The notes below the pieces were generated by a model. The model made no database searches, had not been told where the DNA came from, and saw nothing but the letters and a program-made list of their open reading frames with translations. Shown one piece after another: positions 40,696 to 63,985 of a stretch of DNA of 64,000 nucleotides. The stretch's first letter is position 1. Each line of letters starts with the position of its first letter. The stretch lies in UHGV virus genome UHGV-0076294; one strand, written 5' to 3'. The DNA is from a virus. Made by a program: the position numbers and the translations under genes.

Positions 40696-41220
40696 ATGCT
40701 TACCTCACTCGGTAAGACCGTTATGCTAACGATACTTCCAGAATCGGATATTGACAACGACCTGTTTAACGCCCCTGAGCGCTTCAAGGTCGTTACGATA
40801 AATTGTGTAGGGGCAATGGGTCGGGGTATCGCTTTAGCGTGCAGAGAACGCTATCCTGGTCTTTATCAGGACTACCGAGAACGTTGCTTCGCTAACGAGA
40901 TACGAATAGGGAATGTGTACGTTTATCCCGAGGAAAACTGCATTCTCTTACCAACTAAAACACATTGGAAACTGAAATCCCAGGTTTCTTATGTTATCGC
41001 GGGTATCACCGCGTTGGCAGATGCCGCAGAAAACTTAGAGGGTGGGGTGGCTTTACCGCCGTTAGGGATGGCCACCGGTTGGTTGACAAAAGCTGAACGT
41101 CAACAAATCTTTTTGTTTATCGAAAAGAAACTCGTACCAAGGAGACAACATTACCGTTTCTATTTACCCGAACCGCTTTACCAAGAAGCAAAACCTTTAA
41201 TTCCAAACCTTTTTAAATAG
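40696..41220 (+). CDS. Macrodomain protein, DarG/TARG1-like class
   Basis: VTINCVGAMGRGIALACRERYPGLYQDYRERC...LLPTKTHWKLKS...VALPPLG is colinear with the DarG macrodomain pattern NCVGVMGKGIALQFK..YP...FPTKKHWR..S...PPLG. Start codon uncertain (40696 or 40723). Confidence 0.7.
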   Translation: MLTSLGKTVMLTILPESDIDNDLFNAPERFKVVTINCVGAMGRGIALACRERYPGLYQDYRERCFANEIRIGNVYVYPEENCILLPTKTHWKLKSQVSYVIAGITALADAAENLEGGVALPPLGMATGWLTKAERQQIFLFIEKKLVPRRQHYRFYLPEPLYQEAKPLIPNLFK

Positions 41221-41235: not shown

Positions 41236-41320
41236 CACACAACAAAGGAGTACCAGCTGTCCGCGCCGTGATTTCGTTCTACGGAATACGGAAATGTATA
41301 AATCCAACTGGAGAACTAGT

Positions 41321-42007
41321 ATGTTTCGTATCTTCTTTCTTTTACTGGTAACACTTTTCGCGTTTAACGCATACGCATCCAAATCCGCACCCAGTGCCAA
41401 ACACCATCGTGAATTCGAAATGATTCAAGACCGTTTCGAACGGGTAAAACCGTTGATTGTGGAAATCTCTCGAAAGCAGGGTGTTGATCCTAATTTAATG
41501 ACCACGCTAATCTATCGAGAGTCACGGTTTAATCCGAAGGCGTATAATCGAACGTCTAAAGCGCACAGTCTGGTTCAGATGCTACCGAGCACAAAGCGCA
41601 ATTTGCTAAAACTCTACGGTGCCGAAATCGGACTTAGTCGCAATGCGGATTTGTACAATCCTCGTAATGCGGTGCTATTGGCTTCCGTCTACGTTAAACA
41701 TTTAGAAAAGGGGTTAACTAAACGACTCAAACGCAAGCCCACTATTGCAGAAATAGCATTGGCTTATCACTGGGGTGAAAGCGGTGCACACGCCAGGATT
41801 AAAAGCAAGTCTCGGGCAGCACAACGAGAAATGGCGAGCTTTATGAAAGATGCAACGTTCTACAGTGCGAAAATCAACAAGCCTGTAGCATCTCGTCAGC
41901 TTGCGTTTGCGAAGAAACCAGAACGCCAGATTCAGTTAGCAGAAGTTAACCGAATTTGGGATACGATAAACACCAGTTTTCCATTTAAACAAGGAGTCAC
42001 CCTTTGA
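41321..42007 (+). CDS. Exported lytic transglycosylase (SLT domain)
   Basis: YRESRFNPKAYNRTSKAHSLVQMLPST (E-S..F.P.A.....A.GL.Q pattern). Leader MFRIFFLLLVTLFAFNAYA/SK. Start at ATG 41321 (GGAGA RBS). Confidence 0.75.
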   Translation: MFRIFFLLLVTLFAFNAYASKSAPSAKHHREFEMIQDRFERVKPLIVEISRKQGVDPNLMTTLIYRESRFNPKAYNRTSKAHSLVQMLPSTKRNLLKLYGAEIGLSRNADLYNPRNAVLLASVYVKHLEKGLTKRLKRKPTIAEIALAYHWGESGAHARIKSKSRAAQREMASFMKDATFYSAKINKPVASRQLAFAKKPERQIQLAEVNRIWDTINTSFPFKQGVTL

Positions 42008-59828: not shown

Positions 59829-60377
59829 ATGTTTACAGGATTAATAACACGTTTTAAGAAACGTCTACAGCAAAAGCGTTTACAGGCTCTCAGAGAGTCT
59901 CTAAGGCAGGAGTTTCATAAGAACATCCATAACCCCTGCGCGAGAACGTTTAGCGGCTTACGGTTGCTTACGTTGCCTATAAACGTAGATACCGAACCCT
60001 ACCACCCCAGCTTACGTGGTAATCTCGAGTTACGTATCGCTAATCTCGATATTCTTTACCAACGTCTTGCTTTTTATATCAACGAATACCAACGCACGAT
60101 TAATGGAACCTCTATCGAGTGGTTATCATTGCCAGAGTCGTTAAGTAAACAAAAAGACTCATCGGAAAACCGCTGGTTAGACACTTATTTTGGGACGTCC
60201 AATCCGGCGGTTGCCTATTATAAGCTAACGCAGTTACTCGAGCTTATCGAACCTTACGAAGATATTTTCTTAAAGCCCAAGACCGATGAAGATCGGGCAT
60301 TGGTAAATCACTGTGCACATTTGTTTCGTGAAATGGAGGTACTCATCGAACACTACCTTTTAAACCGACCTGTTTAA
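59829..60377 (+). CDS. Hypothetical protein
   Basis: 182-aa ORF, GGAG RBS. Confidence 0.7.
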   Translation: MFTGLITRFKKRLQQKRLQALRESLRQEFHKNIHNPCARTFSGLRLLTLPINVDTEPYHPSLRGNLELRIANLDILYQRLAFYINEYQRTINGTSIEWLSLPESLSKQKDSSENRWLDTYFGTSNPAVAYYKLTQLLELIEPYEDIFLKPKTDEDRALVNHCAHLFREMEVLIEHYLLNRPV

Positions 60378-60407
60378 TAATCAGTTAACCCCTTGTAACA
60401 AGGTGAA

Positions 60408-61223
60408 GTGATGGATAACGAAGCAAAAGCAAAACTGCAACGAGACGAAGAAGAACGTGCGGGTAAACCGTTGCAAAAACTTTACTGGGAATATAAAACT
60501 CAGATTGGGTGGGAACCTAAAGATTATAAGCTTGCAGTTGCAAGACACATCCTGTCCCCTGATTTCCGCACACGTTCGAAGGCCGTTCTCGAAGATCGAG
60601 TACAACGCATCTCAACGAAACTTACCTCAGGTAACAACCGTGACTTACCAGTTGACCTCACGTGGCGAGGTTTCACGGAAGGGTTAGTGATTACCGGGGT
60701 GGAATCGTTGAGAATCTGTATAACGACTTACCGTGGACGTTTCCAGACAAAAACCATTTCTGAAGTCACCACACGAGTGCGTGACGATCTTATCCGCTAC
60801 GATTTTGAAGACTGTAACGAGAAACCGACGGCCAGTGCTAGTACGGAACTGAATCGTTTCTTCCGAGATTGTGCGGGGACAGCAAAGACGATGGAGCACC
60901 CCCTTTCGAGACTCCTGTGGACAATCTTTGCGAATATCAAAATGACTTCGGATTGGTGGCATCGACTTTCAACGAACTATGTTAATAATCCAGAGAACTG
61001 TCTTCCTATCGCTTCTAAACGCAATGACATGCGGCACAATATGCAGCACAACATGCGACTGAAAAAGAAGCTGTCTTGGAAATGGTTTATGAGGATACTC
61101 AAGGCGATTGATGTGAAGAAATTCGATATTCTGTTGACGTTAAAACGCAAAAACGACAACAAGATTTACGAAGTCGTTCACACGGTTGACCTCGAGGCTT
61201 ATCAATTTCGGAGTACAGAATGA
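60408..61223 (+). CDS. Hypothetical protein
   Basis: 271-aa ORF, AAGGTGA RBS. Confidence 0.7.
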   Translation: MMDNEAKAKLQRDEEERAGKPLQKLYWEYKTQIGWEPKDYKLAVARHILSPDFRTRSKAVLEDRVQRISTKLTSGNNRDLPVDLTWRGFTEGLVITGVESLRICITTYRGRFQTKTISEVTTRVRDDLIRYDFEDCNEKPTASASTELNRFFRDCAGTAKTMEHPLSRLLWTIFANIKMTSDWWHRLSTNYVNNPENCLPIASKRNDMRHNMQHNMRLKKKLSWKWFMRILKAIDVKKFDILLTLKRKNDNKIYEVVHTVDLEAYQFRSTE

Positions 61224-62494
61224 AACTCGATCAGATAACCGGCCAGATTAACAAAGGTCAATCGGCTATCGACAACTCGGTTAATACCGCGAAGAATGCG
61301 GTTAACCGAGTACAGTCTACGGTAGAGAACGCCGAACGTGGCATTCAGAATACCGTAGATAAAGTCAGCCAGCTTTCCGATCGTGCCGGTGAAACCTTTA
61401 ACAAACTCATCAGCGGTGGAAGTGAACTGACCTCAAAAATCGGTAACCTATTCGGCGGTAGTGACATTGCCAGCGTGGGGGGTACCAAAACAGCAGGCAG
61501 CTCCACCTCCGGTGTTTCCCCAGGACAAAAAGTTCCTGGGTTTGCTTCTAACACTAAAGAGACACTACCTGTTCTCGATCCGCAGAAGCGTGATGTTTCA
61601 GAACCTTTCAAAAAGGTTAATGAGGAAGGGCTTAAAGCACTAGGGTATCTGTCACCCGGTGACTCAGGAAGTTTACTGGGCAAAGGTTGGGACAGCATTT
61701 CGTCGCTGAGTGATTCTCTTCTATCAGGAATTGGTACTGACTTCTCCTCCGTGAAGAAGCGTCTCGAAGGAACGCTGAATATCGCAGGTCAACTGGCTAA
61801 GCTTCCTTCAGAAATCAGTCATGAAGTCAACAACTTTATGTCTGAAGTCAACAGTATGCGTTACCAGATAACCTCGGTTATTGATGACGTACAACACACG
61901 TTTGACAGCTATAAAGACCTTGACGATTTCTTAGCCATCGACAACTTGATTAACAGTTTCAAAGGCAGCGACAGTTTTTCAGCGTTAGACATTAACACGT
62001 CGTCTGCTTTGATCTACGGTCTGTCTACGAAACTTAACAGTTACGGATTGCCTGCAAAAATCGACCCGATGATTCAGGCTATCAGTGACGATCAAGCAAA
62101 AGAGGCGCTTTACGGGGAGCTGATGATTCAAGCTGCTGCTACCGGTAACTTGGACTCAACAGAATATTACCTGAACAAACTTCAGGAAGGTCAGGGCAAA
62201 CAGATTGCGGAAACCGTGATTCAAAACATCATGGCTAACTTGCGTGTGGAAACCGGTACGAGTTTTAGTACGTACGGTACACGAATGTTAGCATTATTTA
62301 AAGCACTTGATGCCAAATGGGATAAAACGAAAAACGTTACTCCTGAAACTACCGAACTGAAACTTTATACTTACGCAGGCGCTAACGCGATACAAGCGCT
62401 GATGACCACCGAAAAACGTAACTACGTTTTAGCGGCAGGTAGTGTAAGTTATCAGTCTACCGATGAAATCGTGGAAGACTACTTTGCAATCTAA
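61220..62494 (+). CDS. Hypothetical protein (Ser/Gly/Asn-rich, helical N-terminus)
   Basis: 424-aa ORF, GGAG RBS, ATGA overlap. Confidence 0.7.
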   Translation: MKLDQITGQINKGQSAIDNSVNTAKNAVNRVQSTVENAERGIQNTVDKVSQLSDRAGETFNKLISGGSELTSKIGNLFGGSDIASVGGTKTAGSSTSGVSPGQKVPGFASNTKETLPVLDPQKRDVSEPFKKVNEEGLKALGYLSPGDSGSLLGKGWDSISSLSDSLLSGIGTDFSSVKKRLEGTLNIAGQLAKLPSEISHEVNNFMSEVNSMRYQITSVIDDVQHTFDSYKDLDDFLAIDNLINSFKGSDSFSALDINTSSALIYGLSTKLNSYGLPAKIDPMIQAISDDQAKEALYGELMIQAAATGNLDSTEYYLNKLQEGQGKQIAETVIQNIMANLRVETGTSFSTYGTRMLALFKALDAKWDKTKNVTPETTELKLYTYAGANAIQALMTTEKRNYVLAAGSVSYQSTDEIVEDYFAI

Positions 62495-62504
62495 GAGGCC
62501 GGAT

Positions 62505-63326
62505 ATGTCCGAACCACAATTACTGCGCTCCGTATTAAAGAAAATCAAAAGTCAAAGTGAAGACATTCAATCACTGGCTTTAACGCTCGGTTATGCGCCG
62601 GGTGACTTACGTTCTAAATCCTACGTGAACGCGTCAAGCATTGTACTCACGCCTGATGAGCTCCTTGCTTATGTCCTATACCTGAGACGGTTAGGCTATG
62701 TTTGTGCTTTACCTGAACAACTCCCGTTTACCGATGGGGTGAACCACATCAACTTTTACTCCAACGGTCGTACTACCGTGGGTAAGATGATCAGTAACTT
62801 CTACGCGAAACCTGACGGGTCAAAATTCGACACGATACACGGTCAGTTCCTGACGTTAGAAGGTTACTATCACTACTTGCGTATCGTTGACTACATGTTA
62901 CACATGGGTTACTCGATTAAAACGATGGGACGTCTGGAGACTGAATTTCCTGATATTCTTCGTTTACGTACGTTAACGGGTGCTGAGTGTATTCAGTTAG
63001 GTCGTCGATTAAAAGCGGCAATTTACGGGAAAACGGATTACCGTCCCGGTGAGTTTAGTAGCTACGCGACTGGCGCATTTAAGAATGCGCTGCTGCGTAA
63101 GTTGCACCTGTTGCAATACGACGGGTCTTGTTTAGGTAATACCCTGTCTTACTGCCATTCGATGAATCTTCCGTTCTTGCATTATTACGTCATGAACGGT
63201 CGGGTGATTACACCACCACATTCTGAATGGCTTCCTAATCTGGTGGTTTCTATTGTTGAAAACATCGACTATAACGACTCGACGTTCGATATTACGGACG
63301 TCAGTGAACGTATGGGATTAATCTAA
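62505..63326 (+). CDS. NADAR (YbiA-like, DUF1768) domain protein
   Basis: INFYSNGRTTVGKMISNF...FLTLEGYYHYLR...GAECIQLGRRLK...FKNALLRKL vs E. coli YbiA INFYSTSDDYGDFSNF...WPTSEHYFQAQK...MVAARMGR...MRKALRAKF. Start at ATG 62505 (AAGAGG RBS). Confidence 0.55.
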   Translation: MSEPQLLRSVLKKIKSQSEDIQSLALTLGYAPGDLRSKSYVNASSIVLTPDELLAYVLYLRRLGYVCALPEQLPFTDGVNHINFYSNGRTTVGKMISNFYAKPDGSKFDTIHGQFLTLEGYYHYLRIVDYMLHMGYSIKTMGRLETEFPDILRLRTLTGAECIQLGRRLKAAIYGKTDYRPGEFSSYATGAFKNALLRKLHLLQYDGSCLGNTLSYCHSMNLPFLHYYVMNGRVITPPHSEWLPNLVVSIVENIDYNDSTFDITDVSERMGLI

Positions 63327-63985
63327 TGGGATTGTTCGATACCCTAGCGCGGCTGGATAAAGCGCAGGAAGAAGAAATCATTCGTGTTGCTGGTGAGTCC
63401 ATTAAACACGAAGTCGAAAAGGAATACTGCGTTTGGGTAAAACCTACGCAAGCGGGATGGGATTGGCTCCACGCACAAGAAGCCAAGATGTTCATGGACA
63501 TTCTCATGCCGATAGAAGGTGGGCGTCGTCGTATCCGTATTAAAGAAGACGGTACGGCACAGCTAACGCTTAAGCGTAAGTTCCAGGACGGAAAGGTTGA
63601 AGAGAATTCGGATATCGGTATTAGTTCCGCACTCTCTTTTTACAAAGACGGTTATTTGGCACACCTGGTGAAACGTATTCACTTAGAGCCGGGTGAATTA
63701 GCCGAGAAAGGGGCTAAGCATTGGGATATTGATATTTTCACTATCACCACCGGACACCCTGCCATTGAAGTTTCAGCTGACTTTAACGATCTCATCACCG
63801 AGATGCGTAGTAGCACCAGCGTTGGTGACTGGGTGAAAGTTGAACTGGAAGTCGAACGTTACGAGATTGCAGATGTGCTGTCTGTAATTCCGTTTGAGTT
63901 TGACGGCCATATTCCGGCTACGCCGAAAGATCCTGAAGACCAAGAATATCTTCGTGATTACTGGGATTCAGTTACCCGTATGTAA
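63326..63985 (+). CDS. CYTH-like (triphosphate tunnel metalloenzyme) domain protein
   Basis: ExExK-type HEVEKEY near the N-terminus, RRRIRIKEDGTAQLTLKRK, WDIDIF, VKVELEVERYE: alternating charged beta-strand pattern of CYTH domains. Confidence 0.45.
   Translation: MGLFDTLARLDKAQEEEIIRVAGESIKHEVEKEYCVWVKPTQAGWDWLHAQEAKMFMDILMPIEGGRRRIRIKEDGTAQLTLKRKFQDGKVEENSDIGISSALSFYKDGYLAHLVKRIHLEPGELAEKGAKHWDIDIFTITTGHPAIEVSADFNDLITEMRSSTSVGDWVKVELEVERYEIADVLSVIPFEFDGHIPATPKDPEDQEYLRDYWDSVTRM

Follow-up and report, generated by a model that had tools for sequence, protein, structure and literature searches.

Predicted NADAR and CYTH folds in two adjacent proteins of an SPN3US-like jumbo phage, the second with a candidate head-packaging leader

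Two overlapping genes at the end of a tightly packed array in the virus genome UHGV-0076294 raise the question of what their products do, and whether these products act together. The stretch of DNA analysed, 64,000 nucleotides in length, is referred to here as the window, and all features described below lie on its plus strand. Gene A (62505..63326) runs from an ATG at 62505 to a TAA stop codon at 63324-63326 and encodes 273 amino acids, and gene B (63326..63985) runs from an ATG at 63326-63328 to a stop codon at 63983-63985 and encodes 219 amino acids. The two genes are joined by a TAATG stop/start overlap (63324..63328), in which one base is common to the stop of A and the start of B. Their products are orthologues of SPN3US gp224 and Asesino gp246 (A) and of SPN3US gp225 and Asesino gp247 (B). 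A sequence-only reading of this locus, whose gene coordinates and overlap agree with the DNA, had guessed that A is a NADAR-like protein and that B is a CYTH-like protein coupled to it as a partner in nucleotide signalling.

We favour the reading that A and B are two separate accessory enzymes encoded in a late structural array, with A being a NADAR-type protein and B being a CYTH protein that is packaged in the head and cleaved from its leader, and we assign this reading a probability of roughly 0.55. The presence of NADAR and CYTH domains in this phage is unsurprising because NADAR domains occur in nearly half of medium and jumbo phages and CYTH triphosphatases are scattered among jumbo phages (Iyer et al.). 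Both proteins are of known kinds, and the understanding of the NADAR and CYTH enzyme families themselves is unchanged by these results. What is new in detail is the placement of gp224 and its relatives in a large unannotated clade of His-type NADARs, with an extra N-terminal domain, and the recognition of the head protein gp225 as a CYTH/TTM (triphosphate-tunnel) enzyme behind a cleavable leader. In this way, a concrete and testable enzymology becomes available for two proteins so far labelled ‘hypothetical’ in SPN3US-like jumbo phages.

Predicted folds and conserved residues

Neither protein was matched by a Pfam family even at E<=10 or by any NCBIfam model. In PHROGs, A and B matched ‘unknown function’ families alone (phrog_652 and phrog_7768), and PDB sequence and profile searches with both proteins returned only chance-level matches. 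An SltB segment resembling TDG-NHINIYS, which surfaced in the PDB search, was rejected (E about 0.6). To examine the folds, alignments were built from 40 A and 39 B homologues, and structures were predicted without templates (AF2), with pLDDT values of 93 and 88 for the two proteins. The model of A is confident, and a closed beta-barrel tunnel fold is present in the predicted structure of B. We regard both folds as real, with the models pointing to NADAR for A and to CYTH/TTM for B.

The sequence-only reading had proposed searches with PF08719 (NADAR) and PF01928 (CYTH), and would have given up the idea had no family match been found. These searches are negative even at E<=10, and the folds are right nonetheless: the NADAR and CYTH guesses agree with the fold predictions. 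Among the motifs quoted for A, INFYS...SNF, FLTLEGYY, LGRR and FKNALLRKL are present, although INFYS and SNF are separated by 10 residues and not by the 11 that had been counted. All of those quoted for B (HEVEKEY, RRRIRIKEDGTAQLTLKRK, WDIDIF and VELEVE) are present as well. As judged from the alignments, these motifs are not chance resemblances, since they sit on columns that are invariant across the 40 A and 39 B homologues. The active-site geometry and the register of two of the motifs were derived from alignments and strand periodicity.

When the A profile was used in an exhaustive HMMER search, 1090 relatives were recovered at E<=1e-3. The best 150 of these 1090 are mostly stand-alone phage-type proteins of 150-190 amino acids, which match residues ~74-250 of A. 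This small (~150-190 amino acids) NADAR-like form is present in 591 deposited phage genomes, and the phages that carry it are Ackermannviridae, Asteriusvirus-like and other jumbo phages, as well as Ralstonia and Vibrio phages. It is labelled ‘hypothetical’ in nearly all of 40 sampled records, and no Pfam model covers the family, such that transfer of the annotation to these 591 genomes is useful by itself.

Profile-profile comparisons connect this wider family to established NADARs. A wide A-family profile of 93 sequences (92 relatives plus the core of A) was aligned by hhalign with a YbiA profile (42 sequences from 42 genomes) at 97.2% probability (E 3.4e-11, 135 columns) and with T4 gp30.3 at 95.3% probability (E 2e-8), where His226 of A is aligned to the T4 His. 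A narrow A profile of 40 sequences gave no significant match to YbiA or gp30.3 by hmmsearch or hhalign, and PF08719, PF08010 and TIGR02464 showed no match to window protein A even at E<=10. Two members of the wider family gave sub-threshold matches to PF08719/TIGR02464 (for P0167, PF08719 E 7e-4 and TIGR02464 E 9e-6), and a short relative of A, P0090, matched PF08010 (Phage_30_3) with an E value of 0.24. These findings place A, at the level of sequence, in a large unannotated clade of His-type phage NADARs that is distinct from PF08010.

The NADAR core of A comprises residues ~76-252 (62730..63260), as delimited by invariant columns and hhalign. It is preceded by an N-terminal domain of ~75 residues (62505..62729), which is small and alpha/beta by predicted secondary structure. 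This domain is missing from the relatives of 150-190 amino acids, which begin at about residue 74 of A, and it is an add-on restricted to the SPN3US/Erwinia jumbo-phage clade.

Key codons of A were assigned from conserved columns, using residue roles described for other NADARs (PMC11543638). In those proteins the catalytic Glu follows the second strand (YbiA E48, C7 NADAR E88 and P. nicotianae E43; Schuller et al., PMC11543638). The corresponding Glu119 of A (62859-62861) is aligned to YbiA E48 and is invariant, being found in 40/40 close homologues and 92/93 wider-family members. Gly166-Arg167 (63000-63005), representing the pyrophosphate-binding GR motif, and Lys199 are also invariant in the close family. 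Known NADARs carry a phosphate/adenine-binding Lys seven residues past the catalytic Glu (K55, K95 and K50; PMC11543638). At this position, A has Arg126 (62880-62882); Arg is found in 33/40 close homologues and Lys in the other 7/40, and the position is variable in the wider family. His226 (63180-63182) is invariant in 40/40 close and 90/93 wider-family sequences, and aligns with the gp30.3 His by hhalign and with YbiA E125 by MAFFT, with the register relative to YbiA having low confidence in hhalign. A His at this last-strand position is a published hallmark of ‘phage NADARs’ (PMC11543638). Glu119, Gly166-Arg167, position 126 and His226 of A correspond to E43, R79, K50 and E125 of the ADP-ribose-bound NADAR structure.

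Protein A shares with T4 gp30.3 (AdfN; PF08010) a stand-alone phage NADAR-fold domain in a large myovirus, the SNF motif, the LEG(F/Y) catalytic Glu motif, the GR motif, and a last-strand His where YbiA has Glu. Unlike gp30.3, A adds the N-terminal domain and an inserted hairpin ahead of the conserved Trp242, has Arg for the phosphate-binding Lys, is not matched by PF08010, and is encoded among late structural genes rather than in an early region. The INFYS/SNF, (T/S)xE, GR and A..K elements are colinear with those of E. coli YbiA and of the DarT1-linked NADAR/DarG1 (PF08719; PDB 2b3w, 8bat and 8bau). In contrast to these proteins, with which identity is ~16%, A has His in place of the last-strand acid (Glu in YbiA, Asp in DarG1) and no linked toxin gene.

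The mature CYTH/TTM domain of B is predicted to span residues 25-219 (63398..63982), on the basis of invariant columns and alternating positions on predicted strands. Its candidate tunnel residues, likewise taken from invariant columns, are E29-x-E31-x-E33 (63410-63424), R68/R69/R71 (63527-63538), T81-x-K83 (63566-63574), W133-D134-x-D136 (63722-63733) and K171-x-E173-x-E175 (63836-63850). E92/E93 and H113/R117 are further invariant residues on predicted strands. The charged residues (E29/E31/E33, D134/D136 and E173/E175; R69/R71, K83, R117 and K171) are the same in all 39 sequences, whose identity falls as low as 42%, and the strand periodicity of the model suggests that they point into the tunnel. 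Such a set is what a triphosphate tunnel normally contains, except for the lysine of the ExExK motif. Strand 1 of B reads E29-V-E31-K-E33-Y-C35, where position i+4 is Glu33, or Cys35 in the other register, and the conserved Lys/Arg32 is out of register.

Other members of the fold include BH2851 (2gfg), E. coli YgiF, NeuTTM (3typ), class IV adenylyl cyclase (2fjt) and the RNA triphosphatases of yeast, mimivirus and vaccinia. Protein B resembles these enzymes in its Glu pair on strand 1 and in the Arg-x-Arg, Thr-x-Lys, Asp-x-Asp and Lys-x-Glu-x-Glu elements on successive strands. It differs from them in having no in-register ExExK Lys, a cleavable leader and capsid packaging (the latter two by orthology), and in the silence of PF01928, which matched 0/39 members of the B family at E<=1. 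No CYTH chain was found when the B-family profile was searched against the PDB. Two of the B homologues bear the source name ‘CYTH domain-containing protein’.

The leader of protein B and its candidate packaging in the head

The first 24 residues of B form a predicted N-terminal propeptide (63326..63397), which is modelled as a low-pLDDT helix (residues 1-24), with the first barrel strand starting from residue 26. A candidate prohead-protease cleavage motif, V21-A22-G23-E24 / S25 (63386..63400), lies at its end. The propeptide and this head-packaging signal were absent from the sequence-only reading.

In SPN3US, mass spectrometry identified the B orthologue gp225 as a head protein present in low abundance, with no function assigned (PMC10052503) and with 59-108 spectral matches per replicate in purified SPN3US heads. 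Its first 24 residues are removed at ARE-24 by the prohead protease gp245 (PMC10052503), which cuts after A-X-E and favours V at P4 and S at P1' (PMC10052503). The motif in B fits this specificity and occupies the same position as ARE-24. Protein B is 58.9% identical to gp225 over its full length and shares its gene order, its length, its position after a gp224 orthologue and its A-x-E/S site after residue 24. The motif is conserved in 38/39 B homologues; by position, V is found in 35, A in 38, E in 39 and S in 38 of the 39 sequences. What is added here to gp225 as published, a head protein with no function assigned, is the CYTH/TTM fold and its tunnel residues. 

Given these similarities, the leader of B is likely to be capsid-targeting. 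B is best read as a head-packaged enzyme that is probably delivered with the DNA. In the mechanism that we propose, the leader would carry B into the prohead, where the prohead protease would cut at VAGE/S. The mature B of 195 residues would be stored in the capsid, presumably entering the cell with the DNA, and would then hydrolyse or otherwise process a triphosphate-bearing substrate, for which tripolyphosphate (PPPi), nucleoside or deoxynucleoside triphosphates (NTP/dNTP) and 5'-triphosphate RNA ends are candidates. Cleavage would leave the Glu motif of B four residues from the new N-terminus. The ExExK motif is usually located at the very N-terminus of CYTH proteins, and its position in cleaved B would fit this arrangement.

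There is precedent for such a route. The internal proteins and Alt of phage T4 are targeted to the capsid, trimmed by a protease and injected. They are also covered in the introduction of PMC10052503. By analogy, B would have a short N-terminal leader cut after Glu by the prohead protease and would be a low-copy enzyme in the head, although it is unrelated to the T4 proteins in sequence and fold. A literature search found no capsid-packaged CYTH protein described. A CYTH/TTM enzyme behind a cleavable leader in gp225 suggests that jumbo phages inject a triphosphate-processing activity.

A bolder proposal, which we consider improbable, is that B is a virion-delivered triphosphate enzyme that works beside the co-packaged virion RNA polymerase at the onset of infection. 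It might serve as an RNA 5'-triphosphatase on early phage or host transcripts, or might, on entry, destroy triphosphate-bearing antiviral nucleotides. In the fullest version of this proposal, A and B would form a counter-defence set specific to enterobacterial nucleus-forming phages. An RNA 5'-triphosphatase of this kind would echo poxviruses, which carry a TTM-type capping triphosphatase in the virion together with the viral polymerase, and the mimivirus capping enzyme has the same fold.

ADP-ribose context of protein A and competing explanations

A macrodomain gene at 40.7 kb (40696..41220) bears on the possible function of A. For its product, the Pfam Macro match is below the cut-off (E 1.2e-3), tblastn finds the phiKZ macrodomain gene (E 1e-17), and the identity with the Macro protein gp152 of Erwinia phage RAY is 34%, which together identify it as an AdfM orthologue. 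AdfM is a nucleus-localised anti-DarT2 factor of the chimalliviruses phiKZ, PhiPA3, Goslar and Asesino (PMC13309987). It protects nucleus-forming phages from thymine ADP-ribosylation, and the paper that describes it does not mention NADAR in these phages (PMC13309987). The phages Asesino, RAY and phiKZ, used here for comparison, are nucleus-forming members of Chimalliviridae. Neither gene A nor gene B is mentioned in the Asesino phage paper.

Genes related to A are found in ADP-ribose gene contexts in other genomes. In phage RAY (gp152-gp153; L070 2498..3855), the Macro gene is followed, after a gap of 30 nucleotides, by a fusion of a NADAR-like N-terminal half and a YAcAr/SLOG C-terminal half. 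The Macro and NADAR-like genes are therefore adjacent in RAY, whereas those of the window are 21 kb apart. A metagenomic protein of 1154 amino acids (P0143) carries Pfam Macro, DUF4326, GDSL-like lipase and YpsA-type SLOG domains and also matches the A profile. In Salmonella phage Munch, gp372 (L068 4578..5543), which is annotated as an ADP-ribosylglycohydrolase (ARH), lies 600 nucleotides downstream of the NADAR-like gp371. These contexts support the NADAR assignment of A. A YbiA-like role for A as an N-glycosidase of riboflavin intermediates was set aside on genomic context, given the Macro/SLOG neighbours or fusions and the absence of flavin genes nearby. The RAY gp152-gp153 pair is located directly downstream of a UvsX-like gene.

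Guanine, in both DNA and RNA, is the base from which every NADAR assayed to date removes ADP-ribose; some also act on cytosine, and none on thymine. T4 gp30.3 (AdfN, a His-type protein) and two unrelated phage NADARs overcome DarTG1 defence (PMC11257639). We propose that A is a non-virion NADAR enzyme that would split ADP-ribose from a DNA or RNA nucleobase at the N-glycosidic bond, with guanine as the precedent. Such cleavage would undo the defence mounted by a host DarT1-type ADP-ribosyltransferase and would complement AdfM, which handles thymine-ADP-ribose. An anti-DarT1 (AdfN-like) role of this kind, alongside the AdfM orthologue at 40.7 kb, is plausible. Because tested NADARs act on guanine-ADP-ribose, AdfN beats DarTG1, and the window macrodomain is an AdfM orthologue, a macrodomain for thymine and a NADAR for guanine, as the sequence-only reading had pictured it, would be the most economical reading by analogy. 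For the DarTG1 branch, which is directed at guanine, a NADAR encoded alongside AdfM is the natural candidate.

Several observations weigh against the roles proposed for A and B. Neither window protein was matched in Pfam, NCBIfam or PDB sequence searches. Protein A has Arg126 where NADARs bind phosphate with Lys, and the K95R variant of the E. coli C7 NADAR was active in vitro, yet gave no rescue of cells from DarT1 (PMC11543638). In one study, gp30.3 expressed alone failed to neutralise DarT1, and, according to Iyer et al., the targets of phage NADARs are mostly soluble ADP-ribose derivatives. Furthermore, A is located among late structural genes and not among early counter-defence genes, and the phage DNA lies in the phage nucleus, such that action of A on DNA presupposes its entry there. 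With regard to B, hhalign of its family with the YgiF TTM domain gave a probability of 0.2%, which is no match. Because this comparison found nothing, the CYTH assignment of B rests on predicted structure and motifs. Its ExExK lysine is not in register (the motif being ExExE or ExExC), which could mean a changed or lost activity. Head packaging and cleavage are known for the SPN3US orthologue, and are carried over to this phage by orthology.

The negative searches would be expected if the similarities were products of chance or modelling artefacts, with neither protein belonging to the proposed superfamilies. This explanation is very hard to reconcile with template-free models at pLDDT 93 and 88, with the independent profile-profile comparison of the A family (E 3e-11), and with the weak matches of wider A-family members to PF08719 and TIGR02464, and we give it almost no weight. 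A less radical alternative is that B truly has the CYTH fold but is an enzymatically dead head component, whose charged tunnel binds DNA, polyphosphate or an internal head protein in a structural or packaging role. The out-of-register position of the defining ExExK lysine and the failure of any CYTH sequence model to recognise the B family are both consistent with such a protein. However, the paired acidic and basic residues are invariant over 39 sequences in a pattern typical of a metal-triphosphate site, and the low abundance of gp225 in the head is a better fit for an enzyme than for a building block. We therefore consider a dead CYTH protein possible but doubtful.

For A, a comparably tentative alternative follows the proposal of Iyer, Burroughs and Aravind for most phage NADARs, in which the protein would destroy soluble NAD+/ADP-ribose-derived molecules and not nucleic-acid lesions. 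Candidate targets are cADPR-type or His-ADPR Thoeris signals, ADP-ribose-1''-phosphate and RNA-repair by-products. A cytoplasmic enzyme would need no import into the phage nucleus, and the NADAR-like family is fused to or located near SLOG/YAcAr, Macro and DUF4326, a context that those authors tie to soluble ADP-ribose derivatives. In contrast, base-linked ADP-ribose in DNA or RNA is the substrate of every NADAR tested biochemically, T4 gp30.3 among them, and no NADAR was reported to cleave a soluble immune signal in the literature surveyed. Somewhat less credible still is a single module in which A and B successively process one ADP-ribose- or nucleotide-derived molecule, either to degrade an immune signal or to remove a triphosphate before N-glycosidic cleavage (two-step nucleotide clearance). 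The overlap of the genes (TAATG here, and 14 nucleotides for the gp224/gp225-type pair in both SPN3US and Asesino) suggests translational coupling, and A lies directly upstream of B in 13/13 cross-checkable genomes, down to about 35-50% protein identity. In addition, full-length A and family B share their clade distribution, and degradation of unwanted NTPs has been suggested as a role for phage CYTH enzymes (Iyer et al. 2021). However, all 13 genomes are collinear across the whole block, and the A-B adjacencies are therefore not independent. No family-B gene lies next to the relatives of A from Ackermannviridae, Asteriusvirus-like phages and the chimallivirus RAY, and no CYTH neighbour was found beside the distant NADAR-like genes of LIMEstone1, a Vibrio Ackermannviridae phage and Munch. 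The family-B matches listed all come from phages of one clade. The two products are also separate in SPN3US, where gp225 is in heads and gp224 is absent from the virion proteome, even from its trace ‘non-virion’ list (PMC10052503). The earlier idea that B is a coupled nucleotide-signal partner of A is not supported by these comparisons, and two separate accessory enzymes remain our preferred reading.

Gene arrangement and phage relationships

The start of A was assigned from the sequence around it. A ribosome-binding site, AAGAGG (62493..62498), is located 6 nucleotides before the ATG at 62505 and shares 2 bases with the stop codon of the upstream gene (62492-62494). An ATG at 62463, inside the upstream gene, would give a longer in-frame open reading frame for A. 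Because no ribosome-binding site is present there and homologues begin at the 62505 Met, position 62505 is the likely start; for example, a homologue with 97% identity (P0001) likewise begins MSEPQLL.

Genes A and B end a tight gene array (59829..63985) in which gaps and overlaps range from a few bases up to ~30 nucleotides. A scan of 59-64 kb for promoters and terminators revealed no excess over shuffles, and for this reason a separate A-B transcript is neither supported nor opposed. The upstream gene in the same tightly packed array (61220..62494; 424 amino acids) is, by synteny, an orthologue of the gene for SPN3US tail protein gp223, which is classed as ‘Tail’ in the SPN3US proteome. Its product gave only weak Pfam matches of coiled-coil type. 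The SPN3US orthologue of A escaped detection in virions, and gene A itself lies between orthologues of an SPN3US tail protein and an SPN3US head protein.

Relatives of both proteins are found in SPN3US-like jumbo phages of Salmonella, Erwinia, Cronobacter, Proteus and Escherichia, with identities of 44-47% for A and 49-59% for B. The gene order around the A-B block is the same as in SPN3US and Asesino. These features indicate that the window derives from an SPN3US-like jumbo phage. A megablast comparison of the phage with 50,697 phage records gave no DNA-level match, since its sequence has diverged too far. Proteins with 97-98% identity were found (P0007, P0009 and P0012 were checked), two of them in Salmonella Enteritidis genome assemblies, which suggests an unclassified jumbo phage that is carried in, or was co-sequenced with, Salmonella isolates. 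Elsewhere in the window, the macrodomain gene is followed immediately by a gene (41294..42007) whose product carries an SLT lytic transglycosylase domain (Pfam E 3e-14).

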